Source of the DNA: Calditrichia bacterium
GTDB taxonomy: Bacteria; Calditrichota; Calditrichia; RBG-13-44-9; J075
Assembly (NCBI GenBank): GCA_050633245.1
Contig: JBOEGD010000047.1
Span: forward strand, 20,179-36,208
Direction of reading: 5' to 3'
DNA: 16,030 nucleotides
Shown: in pieces, positions 64-13,370 of the stretch
Position numbering within the stretch: the first letter of the stretch is position 1
How the letters are laid out: each line of letters begins with the position of its first letter
Translations under genes and position numbers: made by a program
Notes under the pieces: model-generated
Told to the model about the DNA's origin: nothing
The model's database searches: none
Seen by the model: the letters and a program-made list of their open reading frames with translations, nothing else

Positions 64-2409
64 TCATTCTTCCTGCCCAAACGGAATTGCCACACGCAGA
101 ACGATATCTCGTCCCGGGTCATCTGCAAAATAGCGGTAGCGGCTTTGGTAACTTCGGTAGCTGGCATCGAGAATATTGCGCACGCTGATGCTGAAGCGCG
201 GCGTCGTGTTACCAATAGGCATTTCAGCCCCAAACTCCAGGTTATGCAGTACATAGCCATCTGGTGGATCCACAATATCCTGCCCGGCCGGGAACCGATC
301 CTGCCGTGCCACGAAATCGGTCTGGTAGCTAAGGAAAAGTTCATCCAAACCAAGAGCGGTTGGCAGGTGAAATTCGTGCATCAGTCGCATACGATTGGCC
401 GGCATGTAGATGAGCGGCTCATCCGCATCGAGATTATCTGCCAGAAGGAATGATCCGCGCAAGCCGACCTGATAGGTAAGAGTCGGATGAAAAAAGAACT
501 CCCCCTCGAATCCACGCAGACGGGCATTCGCCTGAGCATAATCGAATCCCGGAAAGGCACCGCGAATTGTTACGCAGAGGTTTTCTCTTGGTTGGAGGTA
601 GATGAAGTCGGTAATGGAATTATTGTAAGCACTGACGCTCAGCTGTATACGCTCACCCTCATGCCGAACAGAGATATCGGCACTAAGACTGCTCTCGGAC
701 GTTAAATTTTCATTGCCAAACTCACACTGGGCACTACCATGATGCAGTCCCTGGCTATAGAGCTCGTTAATTCCCGGCGGACGCCAGGCCGTGCCGATAT
801 TTGTTCCCAAAGACCAGCCCGCTCCCAGCTGGTAGTTTAGTCCGACAGCCCCGGACAGGTTTTGGTAGGTATTCGTGTCTTCTGTGACAGCCCCTACCCT
901 TTCGACAAATGCCTTCTGCCAGCGATACTGATAACGCGCTCCCGCTTCCAATGTCAGGTTACCAGTGGTCCATTTTTCCAAAGCAAACACTGCTGCATTG
1001 TAAGCGCGGAAATTTGGAATCAGCGAGCCGCTGCTCTGGCGGGCATTTCCCTGCCGGGAGAAACTAACCCCGAAGCTACCAAAGAAATTATTTGCCGGTG
1101 TGTGGCGAAACGTCAGATCACCTGAGTAGGTTGTCAGCTCTAAATCGAAGGCTGCCTCTTTCGGTGGTTCTGAAGAAAAACGGCTGTGCGCATCAAATTC
1201 CTGTCGGTGGTTCTGCTGCCAGCCATACTGCATTTCCAGCATACCCAAGTGTCCGATTCGCTGACCTGCAAAGACTGAAAGTAATCGATGCGAAATGGAC
1301 TGCTTCGGCGCATCAATTTCGTAGGAAAATGAATTAAGACGCGCCGGTTCCCCACGCTCCAGCGCACGTTCAAGGTCGTTTAATGTTCCGATATGCGCAC
1401 CACGAAAAATACCCAAATCGGTATTGAAATGGCTGTAATAAGCTCTGACACTTCCGCTCTCGCGCTGAAACCCTACCGTCGCAGCACCGCTAAACTCAGC
1501 AAAGCCGGTGTTGTTTAACACATAGCCCGGAGTTTGAGCATCTCCGGCACGTCGACTACTGCCCTGCATCCTCCAGCTCAAACCATTAAAGCGCTCCGTA
1601 CGTCCTTCAATTAATAGCGACGCTGCCCCCTGCCGGTTGTTTGAAAACCCATTCAGGTTAAACTTACCGGCAACTCCGTAAGAAGATCGTAGACGTTTTG
1701 GCGATAATTTGATAACGCCACCAATGGCGTTTGAGCCATATTGCACGGTTGCCGGGCCACGAAGCACTTCAATTTGAGCTGGTGCAAAAGGGTCAATCGC
1801 AGGGCCGTGATCCCCACCCCATTGCTGTCCTTCCTGCGCAACACCGGCATTCATAATAGTAATGCGCTGGCTGTGCAAACCGCGGATAACTGGCTTGGAA
1901 ACGGCGGGGCCCGTTTGCAGCACCGTTACACCGGCTACCTCTTTTAAGCCCTCAGCAAGCGTTTGTCCGCGAATGCGCTCCAGCTCTTTTTCGTTTAGAA
2001 CAGTCAGAGACTGCGAGCTTTCCTTCTCAAGATTGCGCTGACCAAAAGTTGTTTCTTCAATAATCTCAATAAGAATCGAGGTCAACTGAAAAACACGATC
2101 TTCCTCTCTGTCCGGAAAAATTTCGGCGAGGAGCGTTTCGTAGCCCAGATAAATAATCTCGATAGAGTCTGGAAGAAGTGATTGCAATTCCAACAGGAAT
2201 ACCCCATCCTCATCGGAGGTAGTACCGATAATCTGATTACTCGTGCGATTCCGACTGCTTTGAAGAACAATAGAAGCTCCAGGCAATCCTTTACCGGTAT
2301 CACCATCTATTACCTGTCCAGCATAGCGGGTTGAATTTTGTGCAAACAGAGACGCGCTCAGTAAAATGGCTATCAATAACCATCTTACCGGCTTCATAAA
2401 ACTATACAT
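64..2409 (-). CDS. TonB-dependent outer membrane receptor, probably for metal or metal-chelate uptake
   Basis: Signal peptide (MKPVRWLLIAILLSASLFA-Q), N-terminal carboxypeptidase-regulatory-like domain (GQVIDGDTGKGLPGASI), plug motifs (KPVIRGL, QEGQQWGGDHG, IEVLRGPATVQYGSNAIGGVI), beta-barrel ending in NILDASY...PGRD, and a His loop LYSQGLHHGS. Start moved from the ORF-track 2448 to ATG 2409, which has GGAGG 4 nt upstream. Confidence 0.92.
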   Translation of the reverse strand: MYSFMKPVRWLLIAILLSASLFAQNSTRYAGQVIDGDTGKGLPGASIVLQSSRNRTSNQIIGTTSDEDGVFLLELQSLLPDSIEIIYLGYETLLAEIFPDREEDRVFQLTSILIEIIEETTFGQRNLEKESSQSLTVLNEKELERIRGQTLAEGLKEVAGVTVLQTGPAVSKPVIRGLHSQRITIMNAGVAQEGQQWGGDHGPAIDPFAPAQIEVLRGPATVQYGSNAIGGVIKLSPKRLRSSYGVAGKFNLNGFSNNRQGAASLLIEGRTERFNGLSWRMQGSSRRAGDAQTPGYVLNNTGFAEFSGAATVGFQRESGSVRAYYSHFNTDLGIFRGAHIGTLNDLERALERGEPARLNSFSYEIDAPKQSISHRLLSVFAGQRIGHLGMLEMQYGWQQNHRQEFDAHSRFSSEPPKEAAFDLELTTYSGDLTFRHTPANNFFGSFGVSFSRQGNARQSSGSLIPNFRAYNAAVFALEKWTTGNLTLEAGARYQYRWQKAFVERVGAVTEDTNTYQNLSGAVGLNYQLGAGWSLGTNIGTAWRPPGINELYSQGLHHGSAQCEFGNENLTSESSLSADISVRHEGERIQLSVSAYNNSITDFIYLQPRENLCVTIRGAFPGFDYAQANARLRGFEGEFFFHPTLTYQVGLRGSFLLADNLDADEPLIYMPANRMRLMHEFHLPTALGLDELFLSYQTDFVARQDRFPAGQDIVDPPDGYVLHNLEFGAEMPIGNTTPRFSISVRNILDASYRSYQSRYRYFADDPGRDIVLRVAIPFGQEE

Positions 2410-2411
2410 AG

Positions 2412-2515
2412 ATCCTCCACGCCAATTATATATGGCGCAATCGTACAATTGCGTACAACAGCGATTAAATCGCAGTCAGCAATAATTAAAATAAATTAAA
2501 CGATTAGTGGAGAAT
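2412..2515 (-). promoter_or_regulatory. Putative translational-control leader: SD/anti-SD helix enclosing three small hairpins
   Basis: mRNA AUUCUCCAC (2515-2507) can pair with GUGGAGGAU (2420-2412, contains the SD) as 8 Watson-Crick pairs plus 1 G-U. Inverted repeats at 2420-2437, 2436-2453 and 2461-2473 lie between them. Confidence 0.55.
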
Positions 2516-2794
2516 AGTGGGTGGGGCCCGGGAGGCAGAGGCAGAGGCAAAAACATCCTCTGTAATAATAGAAACCGGCTCGTCAATCTCAATTGTGGGA
2601 TACTGGCAAGCAGGTGCGGTGTCAGAAGAAGTCATTAGAAACCCGGTTGCACTTTTCTGCACGATACAAATCGTACAATCGTGCTCATCCGCGCATTCAT
2701 AAACGTGCCAGGCAGCTAATGTCATACTGCTAAGCAGCAATACAACCAGCGCTGCTTTCAAGTAATTCAAAGATGTTAGTTGCTTGACGTTCAT
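2504..2794 (-). CDS. DUF2946/CruR-like upstream ORF with N-terminal hydrophobic segment, H-D-CxxC and C-terminal RAPP arrest motif
   Basis: 96 aa with hydrophobic AALVVLLLSSMTLAAW, then HVYECADEHDCTIC, a low-complexity linker, and SRAPP four residues before the stop. It lies directly upstream of, and co-oriented with, the TonB-dependent receptor. Confidence 0.8.
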   Translation of the reverse strand: MNVKQLTSLNYLKAALVVLLLSSMTLAAWHVYECADEHDCTICIVQKSATGFLMTSSDTAPACQYPTIEIDEPVSIITEDVFASASASRAPPTILH

Positions 2795-3117
2795 GAGCCT
2801 AATATAGTTATTTTTAATTCAAACGCTACAAAACTATAATTTTCTTCCTAAAAAGGCTAGAAAAAAAATTAGTTTATTTGATTTCACGCGCGATAATCAG
2901 ATTATTCCCTCGCCGTATGATTAACACCAAGATTATCATATTCCCGGAATCTCGGTTCTGTTTGTGTAGATTCACTTTATGGAGTTAGTTCTCATCCCGA
3001 AATAGGATGGTTAATAATGACATACACGTCGGTCAAAAAAACATTTTGATTTTATTGCCTTTTGTCATTATGTATGAGTTGCATGTTGAAGCTTTGGCTA
3101 TGCTTCACGGACAAAGA

Positions 3118-3157
3118 TGTCGTGCTGGCACTTCGGCTGCGCTCGGCGTGACAAAAA
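3118..3157. repeat. REP-like extragenic repeat, copy 2, within a degenerate hairpin
   Basis: TTCGGCTGCGCTCGGCGTGACAAAAA (3132-3157) aligns with 29-53. TGTCGTGCTG (3118-3127) pairs with CGGCGTGACA (3144-3153) using three G-T wobbles. Confidence 0.6.
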
Positions 3158-3229
3158 TAGAGATATAGACTTCTAACCGTAATTCGCATATGATGCTTAA
3201 CCATTCAATCAACCAAAGGAGGGGTTACT

Positions 3230-3847
3230 TTGCCTCTACGATACTCCCAATCAGCTCTTATTTGTGTGCTGTTGGCGATCACTGTTCTATTAGGCGGCTG
3301 CGGTGAGAAGTCCTCACCCGATGTCTCAGAAAACCTGCAATTTGATGTAAACCCCGAGTTGCTGGCAGCTGCTTATTCGGATGCCACGCATGGAATTTCC
3401 ATACATCCGCCTGCTCATTGGGAAAAAGCATCTGCTCCTTTATTCGAGGCGTTTAAAGATCGCCTGGCGCAGCAAATGATCAGCGACTCTCTCTATCGCT
3501 TGAGCCCGGTTCAACTTTTCGGAAGTTTCGAAGATGGCAGGATTTTAATTGTATCTGAAATTGAGAGCGCCACATCAGTTTCATCTCTGACAGAGTTTGC
3601 CAAGAGCTATAGAGCAGATCTAAATAATAAATTTCCCGGCGTTTCAATTCGCGAAACCAATTTCGCAATCAACGGCATTCCGGTCTTCCAGTATTTGCTA
3701 ATGCTGGATAAGATGGTTGCCTTTAAACTCGTTTTGGAATCGCCCGGTGGGAAACACCTGCAGCTGGATTACAGTATATCGCGTCAAAACTATGAAGGTC
3801 TTCTAAAAAGTATTGAAGCGTCAATCGGCTCGCTAAGAGCCCTATAA
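3230..3847 (+). CDS. Lipoprotein of unknown function, possibly PsbP/DcrB-like fold
   Basis: TTG start with strong SD AAGGAGG and lipobox LLGG-C. The motif YSDATHGISIHPPAHWEK resembles the Y-x-D...G-x-S-I-x-x-P-x-x-W start of PsbP/Mog1-like domains (fold call is inference). Confidence 0.75.
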   Translation: MPLRYSQSALICVLLAITVLLGGCGEKSSPDVSENLQFDVNPELLAAAYSDATHGISIHPPAHWEKASAPLFEAFKDRLAQQMISDSLYRLSPVQLFGSFEDGRILIVSEIESATSVSSLTEFAKSYRADLNNKFPGVSIRETNFAINGIPVFQYLLMLDKMVAFKLVLESPGGKHLQLDYSISRQNYEGLLKSIEASIGSLRAL

Positions 3848-3880
3848 AATAGTTAGTTTAATCTAAAAATGGAGAAACCC

Positions 3881-4177
3881 ATGTTAAAAAAGCTTACTAA
3901 TCTTTTGCTGGTAGTCTCAATGGTTACCCTTTGCGGTTGCTATGCGAATGTGCATACAGTCGGGAATGGTGGTAACTCGGCAAATAAGGTGGAAAAGAAA
4001 CAGTGGTATATTTTGTGGGGTCTTGTTCCGTTGAACGAAGTGGATTCTCAGGTAATGGCTGCTGGAGCGGAGAATTACACCATTAAAACTGAACATAAGT
4101 TTGTTGACATGTTGATTGGTGTAGTTACCGGTATTGTTACGATTCAGCCAAAGACAGTAACTGTTACCAAAGAATAA
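3881..4177 (+). CDS. Bor/Iss-like small lipoprotein
   Basis: Lipobox TLCG-C, motif WYILWGLVP and hydrophobic C-terminal hairpin FVDMLIGVVTGIVTIQPKTVTV typical of Bor-family proteins. ATG 3881 is preceded by GGAG; the ORF track starts at 3869. Confidence 0.75.
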   Translation: MLKKLTNLLLVVSMVTLCGCYANVHTVGNGGNSANKVEKKQWYILWGLVPLNEVDSQVMAAGAENYTIKTEHKFVDMLIGVVTGIVTIQPKTVTVTKE

Positions 4178-4312: not shown

Positions 4313-5671
4313 CTATTCCCGGTGAAGTTTCTCTTTTTCTATATTCACTATTTGTTGAACTACCTCACCATGACTCATCGTTCTGTCTTTTTTGACTAAA
4401 GCTGACGTACGCGTCCCAATTATTCTATAGGCTTGATAGCGATGTGCCGGAGGTATCCCGTTTCCAATCAGCCAATACGTTAAGCCCTCCTCATATCCAT
4501 TCATCTCAGGCCATTCTTCAGCCGCAACTTCAAAGGGGGCCATTGCAGGAAACGTATCGATAATAGCCAGGTTCTGTAAAACGGAGTCGGGAATTAGGGG
4601 ACGTTCTAATACATTATTATTCCCGGATGCATACACTCGCCAGAATAATGTGCTGGTATTGTTCGATCCGGACCATGTTCCATTCAGCATATCTGCTTCA
4701 CCAGTATAGATAATGCTTTCTATTGAACTGTTGCTACTATTCACTTGAGCAGATACCGCACCACCGGGAACATTAAGCATATCGGGCACCTCTTCAGTGG
4801 CGATAAAATAATTAGATCTTGAATCAGTATCTCTTACGAATGTCACAATAAAAAACGATTCAACATCCAGTGAATCGGGATAAAAAACAAGGTAATCCGA
4901 TTTACCACCTTCCACTTCTTTGAAAGATGATCGCAGGGGCCAGCTTCCAACACTGCCCCGCTCACTAAAGCGTATAGAAACTGCTTCCACAGGTCGGGAT
5001 GTCATCATAGGTTTAGAGGCTAAAGGAATATTTGCAGTTACAGAATAACCATTTGTTGTACCTATTGTAAAATCGAGTCCCTTTTTGAGTCCATAATAGC
5101 CAACACCGGTAGCTTCATTATATCCTGCTCCGTATACAGACATTTTATTAAGTGAATCTAGATAGCGTACCGTAAACAGGTGATTGACATTATCATAACT
5201 TCCCGATTCGTAGTCACTCACGACCAGACTGGATCCGAGGCCACCGCTAAAAGCCTCTGTATAGTTTCCCCGTGGTAGATAGGTAAATACATGCGCCGTG
5301 CCCAGGGTATCTGAACTATAAAAACGTCTGATTGTCCAGTTGCCGGCAGGCGCGTTCCAAAACGTTGAAATAAAATAGCGAACTGGTTCTTCATCGGTTT
5401 GTCGCTCTATTATCGAGACCGTTACGGTCGAACTATCTACTAGGCCAAAGTCAAATGTTCCCTCTCCCTGCAAACTGCGACTATCAAGTATTTGCTGACC
5501 GTCGTTGGAATGTAAAATTGCCCAGGAGAGAATATCATCAGTCGGACCATCCAGAAATACAGACAGTGAGTACTCTTCCGGTTCGGGCTCGGGAGTGTTT
5601 ACATTTGTTTGATCTTCCGAACACCCAACAAATAGTAGAATGGCAATAACAAGCAGCATCGGATACTTCAC
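4313..5671 (-). CDS. Hypothetical beta-rich lipoprotein (about 450 aa)
   Basis: Long ORF. GTG at 5671 gives MKYPMLLVIAILLFVG-C (lipobox) with AAAGGGGA upstream; the alternative ATG at 5695 has AAGGA. A PEPEPE linker follows the Cys, then a Ser/Thr/Gly/aromatic-rich mature part. The ORF-track start at 5743 falls inside the pnp terminator. Confidence 0.75.
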   Translation of the reverse strand: MKYPMLLVIAILLFVGCSEDQTNVNTPEPEPEEYSLSVFLDGPTDDILSWAILHSNDGQQILDSRSLQGEGTFDFGLVDSSTVTVSIIERQTDEEPVRYFISTFWNAPAGNWTIRRFYSSDTLGTAHVFTYLPRGNYTEAFSGGLGSSLVVSDYESGSYDNVNHLFTVRYLDSLNKMSVYGAGYNEATGVGYYGLKKGLDFTIGTTNGYSVTANIPLASKPMMTSRPVEAVSIRFSERGSVGSWPLRSSFKEVEGGKSDYLVFYPDSLDVESFFIVTFVRDTDSRSNYFIATEEVPDMLNVPGGAVSAQVNSSNSSIESIIYTGEADMLNGTWSGSNNTSTLFWRVYASGNNNVLERPLIPDSVLQNLAIIDTFPAMAPFEVAAEEWPEMNGYEEGLTYWLIGNGIPPAHRYQAYRIIGTRTSALVKKDRTMSHGEVVQQIVNIEKEKLHRE

Positions 5672-5741
5672 TATTTTCCCCTTTGGATTTATCATGTATT
5701 CCTTCGAAGTTGTAAAATGCTGAATGGTTTCCGCTTTACCC

Positions 5742-5774
5742 AAAAAAAAAGACCCCGCCAGGGCGAGGTCTTTT
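5742..5774 (-). terminator. Intrinsic terminator of pnp and the rimP operon
   Basis: Minus strand AAAAGACCTCGCC-CT-GGCGGGGTCTTTTTTTTT forms a GC-rich stem with one G-U pair and a 9-U tail, about 20 nt after the pnp stop. Confidence 0.9.
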
Positions 5775-10511: not shown

Positions 10512-13370
10512 TTAGTTCATGGCGCCCTGACGGTCTTGCTTCAGGGTTTGTGCTTCCTGTACAACTTCGTATGCTTCGATGATATCACCTTCTCGCAGGT
10601 CATTATAGCGTTCGATCATCAAGCCACACTCAAAGCCGGCATTCACTTCTTTTGCGTCATCTTTCTCGCGCTTCAGCGAAGACAGTTTTCCGCTATAAAT
10701 CTCAACGTCATTTCGCACAACGCGAATGAGTGAGTTACGGGTAACCTTTCCACTTAGCACCATGGATCCGGCAACCGTTCCAAGGCGAGAGATTTTGAAC
10801 AACTGTCGCACTTCAACGGTTCCGAGTAGCACTTCACGCTCGATCGGCTGAAGCATTCCTTCAAGGGCCGCTTCAACTTCTTCAATAGCATCGTAGATGA
10901 CTTTGTATTGGCGAATATCTACCTTCTCGCGATCGGCCAGTTCCTTTGCCTTAACGGACGGTCTAACGTGGAAGCCGATAATGATCGCGTTCGAAGCAGC
11001 GGCCAAAATAACGTCTGACTCAGCGATTGGTCCAACCGCGCGACGAATAACCTGCACTTCAATGGTATTGGTAGAAAGTCGCTGTAGCGAATCTGCCAGA
11101 GCCTGCGCAGAACCGTCTACGTCTGCCTTTACGACTAACTTAAGTTCCTGCAGATTGCCCTGCTGAACCTGCTTGGACAATTCGTCCAGCGTCATTAGTC
11201 TTACCTGACGGAAGTCCTGCTCGCGTTTCAATTGCTGACGTCGCTGTGCCACATCCCGCGCTTCGCGCTCGTCTTCCATTCCAATAAAGCGGTCTCCCGC
11301 TTCAGGCACACCGTCTAACCCAAGCACCTGAACCGGCACAGAGGGTCCGGCCTGTTTAATGCGTTTACCTTTATCATCGAACATGGCACGAACTTTACCA
11401 TTAATCTGTCCTACAACAAAGCTATCACCAACATTCAGCGTTCCGGCAGAGATAAGCACGTTTGCAACCGGGCCTTTGCCCTTATCCAATCGAGCTTCAA
11501 CAACCACACCGCGAGAACGTTTGTTTGGATTCGCCTTTAGGTCAAGCAATTCGGCTTCAAGAAGCACTTTTTCCAGTAGATCGTCTACGCCGTCACCTGT
11601 TTTAGCAGAGACTTCAACGCACTGGAATGTTCCACCCCAGTCTTCTACCAGAATATTGCGATCGGCAAGCTGTTTCTTAATCGTATTTGAATCAGCGCCC
11701 GGCTTATCCATTTTATTTATTGCAATTACGATAGAGACACCGGCAGCTTTCGCATGGTCCAGTGCTTCCTCGGTCTGCGGCATCACCTTGTCATCCGCGG
11801 CGATTACCAGAATAACGATATCAGTAACCTGAGCACCACGGGCACGCATCGCAGTAAAGGCTTCGTGACCAGGTGTATCGAGGAATGTTATCGAGCGACC
11901 TTCAGACATCTGCACCTGATAGGCTCCGATGTGCTGGGTAATTCCGCCAGACTCTCCGTCAGCGACATTTGCTTTACGTACATAGTCTAACAGGGATGTT
12001 TTACCGTGATCGACGTGTCCCATAACGGTAACGACCGGTGAACGCGGTAGCAGATCTTTTGGATCATCTTCTTCATCGGCTGCTTCTTCGATAAAGTCTG
12101 AGCCAAATTCTTCTTCCTGCTCAACTTCATAATCGAATTCTGCGGCTAGCAGGCTAATGGTATCCATATCGAGGCGTTGATTGATAGTCACAACCAAACC
12201 GAGCTCCAGACACTTGCGGATAATATCGATTGTAGACACATCCATCAAGTTAGCCAGATCATTGGCAGTAATAAACTCGGTTACCTTAACTACATTTACT
12301 TCAATCTCTTCTTCAACACCTTCTTCAGTGCGAATCTTCTTGCGTTTCTTGCGACCACCACCGGAATCACTCATTGAAGCGAGTGTTTTCTTCAGTGCAT
12401 CATCAACTTCTTTCTGGTCAACTTTTTTCTTCTTGCGCTTACGTCTGCCCGGTGATCCGGATGTAGAAGAAGAATCATCATCGCCGCCTGCAGGAATGCT
12501 GGGTCGCGATTTGCGACCTTCTTGGCGAAGCATTTCGAAAGCTTTTTTGCGACGAGCTTCGCGATCTTCCTTGCGGGTCTTTTTCTTGCCGCGTTTTTTA
12601 TCATCTTCCTCAGTGGCTTCGCCAGCTTTGGCAGGTGCTGCCTTTGCCTTAGCTTTCGCTTTGCCGCTCTTCTTCTCTTCGGCACGCTGGGCACGCTCTT
12701 CAGCTTCGCGCTTCTGACGTTCCAGAAACTGCTTAGCCATCGGGTGGTCAGTAATAATATCACCGACCTTCGGTTGTTCTTCGCCAATTCCGAGAGGCTC
12801 TACAACTTCTTCCACCACGGCTTCGGTCGTCTCAACAACATCAACTTCCGGCTCAGTTGCTTCTGGCTCGGCAACTTCGACAGGTGCTTCTTCAACCGGT
12901 TCTTCATCAACAGGTTCTTCGGCAACTTCTTCAGCAGGCTCTACTTCAGCAGGGGCTTCCTCTTCAACAGGTTCTTCCTCTACTTCTTCAGCCTCTTCCA
13001 CAGGAGCTTCTTCGGGTTCGACCGGAGCTTCCTCTTCCACAGGAGCCTCTGCAATCTCTTCTTCAACAGGAGTCTCTACAGGCACATCTTCAGCTTCAAC
13101 GGCCTCAGGAGTCTCTTCAACGACAACGTCCTCTTCTTCTTCACGAGTACGTTCGTCGCGACGCGCCTGAATTTTTTCAGCTTCCTTCTTCTCATATGAG
13201 AAGCGATCTAAAAGCTGTTCATAAACTTCAAATGGAATTCTCATATTGGGATTGGTAACCTTCGTCCCTTTCTTCTCGAGAAATTCCTTGATAGTATCAA
13301 AACCAAGATTCAGTTCTTTTGCGATCTGAAATATCTTTTTTGGTTTTCTATCTTTAGCTTCTACCGCCAT
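10512..13370 (-). CDS. infB: Translation initiation factor IF-2
   Basis: IF2_N (KIFQIAKELN), long acidic then basic linker, G-domain motifs GHVDHGKTSLLD, DTPGHEAF and NKMD, then KADVDGS and C-terminal GFECG. Confidence 0.99.
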   Translation of the reverse strand: MAVEAKDRKPKKIFQIAKELNLGFDTIKEFLEKKGTKVTNPNMRIPFEVYEQLLDRFSYEKKEAEKIQARRDERTREEEEDVVVEETPEAVEAEDVPVETPVEEEIAEAPVEEEAPVEPEEAPVEEAEEVEEEPVEEEAPAEVEPAEEVAEEPVDEEPVEEAPVEVAEPEATEPEVDVVETTEAVVEEVVEPLGIGEEQPKVGDIITDHPMAKQFLERQKREAEERAQRAEEKKSGKAKAKAKAAPAKAGEATEEDDKKRGKKKTRKEDREARRKKAFEMLRQEGRKSRPSIPAGGDDDSSSTSGSPGRRKRKKKKVDQKEVDDALKKTLASMSDSGGGRKKRKKIRTEEGVEEEIEVNVVKVTEFITANDLANLMDVSTIDIIRKCLELGLVVTINQRLDMDTISLLAAEFDYEVEQEEEFGSDFIEEAADEEDDPKDLLPRSPVVTVMGHVDHGKTSLLDYVRKANVADGESGGITQHIGAYQVQMSEGRSITFLDTPGHEAFTAMRARGAQVTDIVILVIAADDKVMPQTEEALDHAKAAGVSIVIAINKMDKPGADSNTIKKQLADRNILVEDWGGTFQCVEVSAKTGDGVDDLLEKVLLEAELLDLKANPNKRSRGVVVEARLDKGKGPVANVLISAGTLNVGDSFVVGQINGKVRAMFDDKGKRIKQAGPSVPVQVLGLDGVPEAGDRFIGMEDEREARDVAQRRQQLKREQDFRQVRLMTLDELSKQVQQGNLQELKLVVKADVDGSAQALADSLQRLSTNTIEVQVIRRAVGPIAESDVILAAASNAIIIGFHVRPSVKAKELADREKVDIRQYKVIYDAIEEVEAALEGMLQPIEREVLLGTVEVRQLFKISRLGTVAGSMVLSGKVTRNSLIRVVRNDVEIYSGKLSSLKREKDDAKEVNAGFECGLMIERYNDLREGDIIEAYEVVQEAQTLKQDRQGAMN

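Follow-up and report, generated by a model that had tools for sequence, protein, structure and literature searches.

To our knowledge, metal-sensing arrest peptides have been characterized in only two cases, the proteobacterial peptides CruR and CutF, both of which respond to copper. The 16,030 nucleotide (nt) stretch of a Calditrichia bacterium genome analyzed here (from contig JBOEGD010000047.1; the whole stretch is called "the window" below) carries a short upstream open reading frame (uORF) that encodes a 96 aa peptide, P0001, in front of the gene for a TonB-dependent receptor, P0002. Judged from its sequence and from those of its relatives, this uORF is probably a cis-acting regulatory arrest peptide of the DUF2946 (CruR/CutF) type that controls the receptor. 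The kind of uORF is already described experimentally (2022, 2023) and has been surveyed across phyla (2025), and the present one is a new, divergent example and not a new principle; what is new is that the Pfam model fails to recognize it, that it occurs in this group of hosts, that it is paired with a ZnuD-like receptor and a lipoprotein not described before, and that its metal may be one other than copper.

CruR (Bp2923) of Bordetella pertussis is reported to be a 145 aa DUF2946 protein whose gene lies first in an operon with that of a TonB-dependent transporter; 45 residues separate its CxxC motif from a RAPP motif that lies three residues from its end, and a 162 nt gap follows (PMC9426467). 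According to the same report, the RAPP motif is required for downstream expression and the CxxC motif for copper control, regulation suffers when the spacing is altered by five residues, neither the signal peptide nor EF-P is needed, and Rho-dependent termination within the gap provides the output; CruR itself was undetected as a protein and acts via its translation, and its family is placed mostly in Proteobacteria (PMC9426467). A toeprint is reported to place the two proline codons of CruR in the P and A sites of a ribosome arrested in vitro; the 2025 survey from which this comes also describes R[AG]PP as depleted from proteomes, arrest peptides excepted, and small secretory R[AG]PP ORFs as preceding TonB receptors "universally" in Gram-negative bacteria, with RAPP uORFs found before DsbA and thioredoxin genes as well (PMC12992588). 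CutF of Rhodobacter capsulatus is also a DUF2946 protein; in its case copper is reported to prolong stalling (PMC9973294; bioRxiv 2025.02.05.636593), and stalling to melt a stem-loop that shields the ribosome-binding site (RBS) of the next gene (bioRxiv 2025.02.05.636593). Its authors are reported to consider that some relatives may sense nickel or cobalt.

The window uORF resembles the published description of CruR in that it comes first and has a putative export or anchor segment, a CxxC motif 45 residues before a RAPP near the stop codon, and a C-rich 3′-end, followed by a gap and a TonB receptor gene; RAPP lies four residues from the stop and the gap is 94 nt, against three residues and 162 nt in CruR. 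It differs from CruR in the size of the peptide (96 aa rather than 145 aa), in having no reportable DUF2946 match and in its host, which belongs to the Fibrobacteres-Chlorobi-Bacteroidetes (FCB) group. The receptor, moreover, is ZnuD-like, the relatives carry a lipoprotein gene and not a PepSY_TM gene, and the window has a helix that could mask the Shine-Dalgarno (SD) sequence of the receptor gene. With CutF, as far as it is described, P0001 shares the character of a candidate nascent-chain sensor with a putative export segment, a Cys motif and a C-terminal Pro motif, and the 9 bp helix of the window is analogous to the CutF stem-loop; CutF, however, has a CxxxC and a PPP-type motif, its EF-P-dependent stalling is enhanced by copper, and it controls a detoxifying multicopper oxidase. 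ApdA, ApdP and seven S. lividans peptides are likewise described as small proteins with a localization signal and R[AG]PP near the C-terminus, but the gene downstream of the window uORF is a TonB-dependent receptor and not part of the protein-localization machinery. In the accounts available to us, the RAPP and RGPP peptides tested experimentally are Sec/YidC monitors or come from Actinomycetota, and none is from the FCB group or precedes a ZnuD-like receptor. A limited literature search found no report that links a uORF of the DUF2946/CruR type with zinc or with Bacteroidota.

The uORF (Table 1) is read on the minus strand from an ATG at 2794 to a TAA at 2506–2504, and the ATG of P0002 lies at 2409, 94 nt 3′ of the uORF stop. 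The ATG at 2794 is likelier to be the start than the TTG at 2770, because P0004–P0006 and P0012, the four nearest of its five close homologs, share the first 10 residues (M-x-x-K-Q/R-x-T-S-x-N/H); the record of P0003 starts at a TTG eight codons into the ORF, which is another gene caller's choice. Lysines K4 and K13 accompany hydrophobic residues 12–28 as preceding lysines (a reading of the sequence), and a Kyte-Doolittle scan of 30 related uORFs found a comparable hydrophobic 15-mer close to the N-terminus of 26, the remaining four (from loci L009, L024, L025 and L032 of the set described below) having a stronger second hydrophobic stretch after CxxC. The candidate metal site reads H30-VYECADE-H38-D39-C40-T-I-C43 (H-x7-HDCTIC), and the C-terminus reads S88-R89-A90-P91-P92 followed by T-I-L-H and the stop, so that RAPP comprises residues 89–92 of 96. 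The window holds 76 stop-to-stop ORFs that are 60 aa or longer, and R[AG]PP occurs, at any position, in this one only. Every element of the uORF listed in the initial annotation was thus found where that annotation had placed it.

A word-index homolog search with the single peptide P0001 gave two proteins, and an exhaustive phmmer search with it over 1.84 billion representatives gave four relatives; a profile search raised the family to 25 proteins. Five homologs are close (P0003–P0006 and P0012) and 20 are more distant. Three alignments are referred to here: A2 holds the 25 window-family proteins, A5 holds 32 sequences including uORFs syntenic with related receptors, and A3 holds those syntenic uORFs that score against DUF2946. 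The invariant columns are H30, D39, C40, C43, R89, P91 and P92 in A2 (n = 25) and H30, C40, C43, P91 and P92 in A5 (n = 32), where R89 is nearly invariant and D39 is not. The arrest core is RAPP in 24 of the 25 homologs and RGPP in one. In all 25 the length from CxxC to RAPP is 45 or 46 residues, yet the sequence between them diverges and contains insertions and deletions; a length that is fixed without conservation of sequence would be expected of a molecular ruler and not of a folded domain. The initial annotation had staked its reading on conservation of the motif pair, and CxxC, R-x-PP and their spacing are indeed kept in every homolog. It had also proposed that the peptide has extra His/Cys ligands, and this held in part: H30, C40 and C43 are invariant, but C34 and H38 vary and carry little weight.

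Species-representative genomes scanned with the receptor P0002 yielded 36 loci (designated by L and a number) whose receptors are 34–51% identical to it. Their hosts are Ignavibacteria, Candidatus Kapaibacterium, Rhodothermales, Bacteroidota (among them Albibacterium, Sphingobacteriaceae, Cytophagia and Flavipsychrobacter), KSB1 and several metagenome-assembled genomes. In 31 of the 36 loci there is a same-strand upstream ORF that ends in [RK][AGSD]PP no more than eight residues from its stop; the core is R[AG]PP in 27 of them, KSPP in L021, KGPP in L022 and L023, and RDPP in L029. Twenty-nine of the 31 have CxxC 41–47 residues before [RK]xPP, with a modal spacing of 44 (44 in twelve, 43 in six, 41 in four, 45 in three, 47 in three and 46 in one; n = 29); of the other two, L028 lacks CxxC and L007 is cut by the end of its contig. 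The two motifs and the distance between them thus also recur in uORFs of related receptors; the initial annotation had suggested looking upstream of orthologous ones. Among the five loci that show no uORF, L026 has no upstream DNA, and L030, L033, L034 and L035 genuinely lack it. The uORF is the first gene in 31 of the 36 loci, and in L010 the order is uORF, lipoprotein, receptor. No conserved genes were found 5′ of the uORF, where the neighbors are unrelated from locus to locus, and therefore the conserved unit begins at the uORF. The motif is also rare elsewhere in these loci: among 2,682 stop-to-stop ORFs of at least 60 aa, 29 have R[AG]PP in their last 12 residues and 26 of these 29 are the uORF of a receptor module, with three lying away from that position. 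The related uORFs are 100–141 aa long and stand in public records as "hypothetical protein" without a domain.

Some features vary among the relatives. The KSPP and KGPP cores belong to Sphingobacteriaceae and Albibacterium (L022, with KGPP, is from the cultured Albibacterium bauzanense DSM 22554), and the uORF-less L030 is a close relative of L029, which suggests from these sequences that the uORF has been weakened or lost in some lineages (the variant-core uORFs lie at 4558–4941 in L021, 4521–4889 in L022, 4507–4875 in L023 and 4209–4589 in L029). An 89 aa subgroup (P0007–P0027) has a His-rich linker from anchor to CxxC (HHHD...DDHDC-P-IC...HHQH), and the uORFs of L004 (4398–4820) and L003 (3625–4002) also have a His-rich linker before CxxC, for example HHKAQHHKAQHHKAQHH in L004. 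Many relatives have Cys-Pro inside CxxC (CPIC, CPLC) and the window uORF has CTIC; we take the Cys-Pro of the relatives to resemble heme-regulatory Cys-Pro motifs. One of the three R[AG]PP-ending ORFs that lie away from the uORF position is a small ORF in L011 (10394–10807, plus strand) that ends in RGPP (FSARGPPADRQTTV), away from the receptor, and has no CxxC.

The relation to DUF2946 (PF11162; gathering cut-off 23.7 bits) was approached through the family. Sub-threshold matches to this model were found for 21 of the 25 window-family members (best E 9.8e-5), and 15 of 18 members scanned singly scored 14.5–20.0 bits; these matches span the region from just before CxxC to RAPP, which falls on positions ∼52–117 of the 117 in PF11162. 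Six of 30 syntenic uORFs (L003, L004, L009, L024, L025 and L032) reach the cut-off, with 23.7–35.2 bits over near full length, and four more match with lower scores. Comparison of A2 with A3 by hhalign covered 60 columns, CxxC through RAPP, at a probability of 97.2% (E 3.3e-11), and the Atlas neighbors of the uORF include DUF2946 clusters (a lead only). From these comparisons it is concluded that P0001 is a member of the DUF2946 (CruR/CutF) superfamily that lies outside the reach of the Pfam model. The search against DUF2946 that the initial annotation proposed was therefore negative for P0001 itself and positive through transitive and profile-profile links. Its central reading, a CruR-like CxxC and RAPP uORF before a metal-type TonB receptor, is backed by the conservation, the synteny and the profile link, and the relatives come from FCB-group bacteria, in agreement with the non-proteobacterial host that it had surmised.

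The receptor P0002 has an N-terminal CarboxypepD_reg-like domain, a Plug and a TonB barrel according to Pfam. Its nearest chain in the PDB is ZnuD of Neisseria meningitidis (4rdr, E 7.2e-27), the next match having E 7.8e-9 and OprC E 5e-7. Three of the four positions of the high-affinity zinc site of ZnuD align, P0002 D200-H201 and H556 with Asp-99, His-100 and His-499; the fourth ligand, Glu-340, falls outside the aligned stretches. Similar His positions occur in heme receptors. All 37 receptors of the family have QEGQQWG-x-[ED]H and [VL]HHG without exception, so that the three aligned ligand positions are kept throughout (as [ED]H and HH). P0002 scores 136.2 bits against the NCBIfam ZnuD model (NF038289), below its cut-off of 950, and its top NCBIfam model is TonB-hemin, with 146 bits, also far below the cut-off of that model. 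ZnuD differs from P0002 in lacking the extra CarboxypepD_reg-like N-terminal domain, and no uORF is described for ZnuD in the literature available to us. By its domains and alignments, P0002 is a metal-type, ZnuD-like receptor and not of the copper CrtA type; no chain named CrtA is among its 42 PDB matches, the comparison with CrtA being by name and description and not by sequence. The CrtA (BfrG) cluster is described as distinct from all solved TonB-dependent transporters, with loci that are mostly beta- and gamma-proteobacterial and in more than 75% of which a PepSY_TM gene follows (PMC12914433). Among 67 scanned downstream ORFs of the relatives of the window locus there is no PepSY_TM gene.

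Instead, a lipoprotein of 180–230 aa is encoded beside the receptor in 25 of the 36 related loci. The window ends 63 nt past the receptor stop, and these counts come from the related loci: in 22 the lipoprotein gene comes immediately after the receptor gene, in L024 and L025 it is the second gene after it, and in L010 it stands between uORF and receptor. The protein matches no Pfam or NCBIfam family; in an alignment of 21 sequences the lipobox Cys is invariant, as are a Tyr, an Asp and two His. Its structure is confidently modeled as an all-beta sandwich (pLDDT 88.8), a fold for which no PDB match was found at E ≤ 0.001. It may be a surface metal- or heme-binding partner of the receptor.

By analogy with the characterized peptides, we infer the stalling of P0001, the metal dependence and polarity of that stalling, and the route to its output as follows. 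A ribosome translating the uORF would arrest on reaching R89-A90-P91-P92, its P site then holding Pro91 and its A site Pro92. C40 and C43 would then sit 48–51 residues and H30 61 residues from the peptidyl-transferase center. The exit tunnel holds roughly 30–40 residues; the His/Cys site would thus lie just beyond it, and the N-terminal hydrophobic segment would already have emerged. Occupancy of the His and CxxC site by metal would set the lifetime of the arrest. While arrested, the ribosome would occupy the C-rich 3′-end of the uORF and the anti-SD codons 94–96, and the receptor (with its lipoprotein partner in the relatives) would be transcribed and translated. Upon release the ribosome would terminate and leave, the C-rich tract would be open to Rho or the 9 bp helix would re-cover the SD sequence, and expression would drop. 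When metal is replete, the arrest should be released and the receptor switched off, a polarity that is preferred because of the logic of uptake systems and the analogy with CruR.

Two output routes are considered in this scheme. The last 75 nt of the window uORF resemble a Rho-utilization site, with a (C−G)/(C+G) value of 0.38. Of 30 uORF ends, this one included, 24 have a value of 0.2 or more, whereas the first 600 nt of the 30 receptor genes lie between −0.12 and +0.08. The other route is the pairing of the last three uORF codons with the receptor SD region, which is present in both the minimum free energy and the centroid folds; this duplex has a predicted energy of −13.3 kcal/mol (z −2.4), and 6 of 200 partner shuffles are equal or better. 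GGAG-type sites also precede other window genes (rpsO, nusA, infB and ORF 3230), and therefore the receptor SD is probably functional. A ribosome arrested at Pro91/Pro92 would presumably extend over roughly half of the anti-SD arm, the first half. As a family-wide feature, the SD-masking helix was rejected, since it recurs in few loci (see below) and the predicted accessibility changes are small. Rho termination is the favored family-wide route, and SD masking is a possible local addition in this genome. No intrinsic terminator is predicted in the 94 nt gap, and an Rfam scan of 2200–3300 found no riboswitch or leader RNA, the sole match being a chance-level small RNA (E 0.27).

A scan for sigma-70 promoters and terminators gave counts equal to those of shuffled sequence. 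The string TAGTTTTG lies at 2829–2836 on the minus strand, 35–42 nt 5′ of the uORF ATG, and fits what we take to be the TAnnTTTG −7 promoter element of Bacteroidota. Strings of the form TAG[AT]TTTG also lie ∼6–13 nt before the uORF ATG in L003, L004, L025 and L032; if these are promoters, they would make the uORF messages of those loci nearly leaderless.

What the uORF senses can be ranked only roughly. Zinc is the leading candidate, itself short of an even chance; iron or heme comes a close second, copper is an unlikely third, and some other metal is the least likely. Leaning toward zinc are the ZnuD-like ligands, a CobW-type GTPase near L032 and an ABC-2 transporter near L003; leaning toward iron or heme are the top NCBIfam match of P0002, TonB-hemin, and a Fur-type operator in relatives; leaning toward copper are the sole CruR precedent and the CxxC motif. 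The operator candidate is a palindrome, TTGCAAAT-N-ATTTGCAA (8-1-8, at most one mismatch), that lies 45–46 nt 5′ of the uORF start in six relatives (Table 1); weaker copies are at −59 in L008 (4235) and L009 (4400), and the uORF-less L033 has two copies (4865 and 4882) directly before its receptor gene. The same 17-mer is reported as the core of an engineered Fur-feoAB1 operator that was co-crystallized with Magnetospirillum Fur (PMC4506495). These sites suggest that control by a Fur-family repressor is layered on the uORF in relatives; the window contains no operator of the TTGCAAAT-N-ATTTGCAA type. A different palindrome was considered there, ATAATCTGATTAT (6-1-6; 2893–2905, minus strand), which lies 99–111 nt 5′ of the uORF ATG, is A+T-rich and loosely Fur-box-like, and stands alone as a perfect 6-1-6 repeat within its 250 nt; no related locus has it, and it was set aside as an unproven operator that may be chance. 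The proposal in the initial annotation that the metal is other than copper (zinc, nickel or cobalt) is made plausible by the ZnuD-like receptor, but the Fur-type operator in relatives points equally to iron. It is a tentative suggestion, and doubtful in its entirety, that an FCB branch of the CruR/CutF family has been recruited to an uptake module of a ZnuD-like receptor and a His2/Asp/Tyr beta-sandwich lipoprotein and senses zinc or iron/heme, not copper, at its invariant His and CxxC site, with SD unmasking and not Rho as the read-out in this genome and a Fur-family operator layered on it in relatives.

Several observations weigh against the reading of P0001 as a metal-sensing arrest peptide of the CruR/CutF type or against parts of the scheme just given. 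Scanned against Pfam and NCBIfam, P0001 matches nothing even at E ≤ 10, 20 of the 30 syntenic uORFs have no DUF2946 match at E ≤ 0.1, and what anchors the hhalign match is two short motifs in sequence of low complexity. The KGPP, KSPP and RDPP cores of L021–L023 and L029, the CxxC-less uORF of L028 and the four uORF-less receptors argue that the element is dispensable or decaying. The metal evidence conflicts among zinc, iron/heme and copper. As to output, the C-rich skew is partly, perhaps largely, a by-product of Ala, Pro and Ser codons; of 31 loci, only 5 show anti-SD pairing at p ≤ 0.03; with the mRNA blocked to +14, the RBS accessibility predicted for the window goes up only from 0.27 to 0.37; and the 181 nt fold has a z of −1.0.

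The alternatives differ in how much of this scheme they would keep. The arrest might have the opposite polarity, as in CutF, so that metal prolongs it and the receptor is induced by the species that it imports (a metal chelate or heme). CutF is a DUF2946 protein too, and copper is reported to enhance its stalling and thereby to melt the RBS stem-loop (PMC9973294; bioRxiv 2025.02.05.636593); the SD-masking helix of the window adjoins the arrest site, and the uORFs of L009, L024, L025 and L032 have their second hydrophobic stretch between CxxC and RAPP. But logic of that type is known from detoxification genes, a receptor that takes up a scarce metal is as a rule repressed by that metal, the SD-masking helix lacks conservation, and CruR, the only uORF of the kind before a TonB receptor whose characterization is described, works the other way; an arrest prolonged by metal is thus unlikely here. 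More of the scheme would be lost if P0001 were a small exported or membrane-anchored metal-binding protein that acts in trans, its RAPP being structural or tuning its yield. Its N-terminal signal or anchor and conserved His/Cys site would suit such a protein, as would its annotation as a hypothetical protein and the plausible small-protein size of its relatives (100–141 aa). Against this, the sequence from CxxC to RAPP is almost unconserved at fixed length, which fits a ruler rather than a fold; the Atlas model of the protein is poor (pTM 0.30); R[AG]PP is reported to be strongly avoided in proteomes outside arrest peptides (PMC12992588); and the one comparable peptide, CruR, is described as undetectable and as working through translation (PMC9426467). 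A role in trans is therefore improbable, the more so than reversed polarity.

Slightly more improbable still is that the arrest is released by the pulling force of insertion or secretion, or by a periplasmic disulfide at CxxC, and so reports on export or oxidative folding. RAPP peptides of the ApdA/ApdP class, the best studied ones, are described as monitoring Sec/YidC by way of N-terminal localization signals, and RAPP uORFs as preceding genes for DsbA and thioredoxin (PMC12992588); thioredoxin-fold genes also lie near L008 and L009. The gene downstream of the window uORF, however, encodes a receptor of the metal type rather than a component of Sec, YidC or Dsb, the His that is invariant beside CxxC and the His-rich linkers of relatives (e.g., HHKAQHHKAQHH in L004) point to metal binding, and the signal peptide of CruR is reported to be dispensable for regulation (PMC9426467). 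At the far end is the reading that the uORF arose by chance within a long leader and that only the promoter controls the receptor. P0001 has no family match and the promoter and terminator scans do no better than shuffles, as a chance ORF would have it, but 25 homologs with invariant motifs and a uORF in 31 of 36 syntenic loci refute this, and its likelihood is negligible. The cis-acting arrest-peptide uORF, with release by metal, remains the preferred reading.

Table 1. Features of the uORF-receptor locus (window coordinates) and selected sites in related loci (coordinates of each locus)
Feature	Location	Strand	Basis or remark
TonB-dependent receptor, 781 aa (P0002), ZnuD-like	64..2409	minus	Pfam, NCBIfam and PDB comparison
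Intergenic gap from uORF to receptor, 94 nt, A+T-rich	2410..2503	minus	
Receptor Shine-Dalgarno region GUGGAGGAU	2412..2420	minus	Predicted partner of 2507-2515
uORF, 96 aa (P0001)	2504..2794	minus	ORF and translation; divergent DUF2946/CruR-type arrest-peptide candidate
C-rich, G-poor tract, last 75 nt of uORF	2504..2578	minus	27 C, 12 G; resembles a Rho-utilization site
Anti-Shine-Dalgarno arm AUUCUCCAC, codons I94-L95-H96	2507..2515	minus	Predicted to pair with 2412-2420
RAPP codons CGG GCC CCA CCC	2519..2530	minus	Predicted arrest site; Pro91 in P site and Pro92 in A site by CruR analogy
45-residue spacer, codons 44-88	2531..2665	minus	Length fixed, sequence poorly conserved
Candidate metal site H30-x3-C34-x3-H38-D39-C40-T-I-C43, codons 30-43	2666..2707	minus	Alignments A2 and A5
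N-terminal hydrophobic segment, codons 12-28, LKAALVVLLLSSMTLAA	2711..2761	minus	Putative signal peptide or N-in/C-out anchor, read from sequence
Lipoprotein examples in relatives	L001 7332-8030; L012 7390-7971; L033 7481-8062		
Palindrome TTGCAAAT-N-ATTTGCAA sites in relatives	L003 3579; L004 4352; L005 4442; L024 4492; L025 4486; L032 1638		

The rest of the window holds genes on both strands. On the strand opposite to the uORF, positions 3869–4177 (plus) encode a 102 aa lipoprotein of the Pfam family Lambda_Bor (PF06291; E 1.2e-13), which is adjoined by a lipoprotein-like ORF without a family at 3230–3847 (plus). A long cluster of genes on the minus strand, rimP-nusA-infB-DUF503-rbfA-truB-ribF-rpsO-pnp (15540–5796), is followed just past the pnp stop by a G+C-rich hairpin with a T run (AAAGACCTCGCCCTGGCGGGGTCTTTTTTT; 5744–5773, minus strand), which looks like the intrinsic terminator of the cluster. 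This hairpin overlaps the listed TTG start of the ORF at 4313–5743, and therefore the real start of that ORF is probably further in. Within the cluster, the IF-2 protein (10512–13370, minus strand) has long acidic N-terminal Glu/Pro/Val/Ala repeats (approximately residues 75–190) and then a Lys/Arg-rich stretch before its conserved domains.

The design seen in the window, in which a His/CxxC site lies ∼45 residues from R-x-PP in a ruler-like arrangement, is widespread in Ignavibacteria, Kapaibacteria, Rhodothermales, Bacteroidota and KSB1, where the Pfam model mostly misses it, and the combination of motif and spacing supplies a recognition rule for annotating such leader peptides. The natural variants, with spacings of 41–47, RAPP, RGPP, KGPP, KSPP and RDPP cores, and receptors with and without a uORF, should be useful for dissecting how metal binding is coupled to release of arrest. 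If the metal is not copper, the principle of nascent-chain sensing would extend to other nutrient metals, and an FCB branch of the family that senses zinc or iron/heme would, if real, provide the first nascent-chain sensor for a nutrient metal other than copper.

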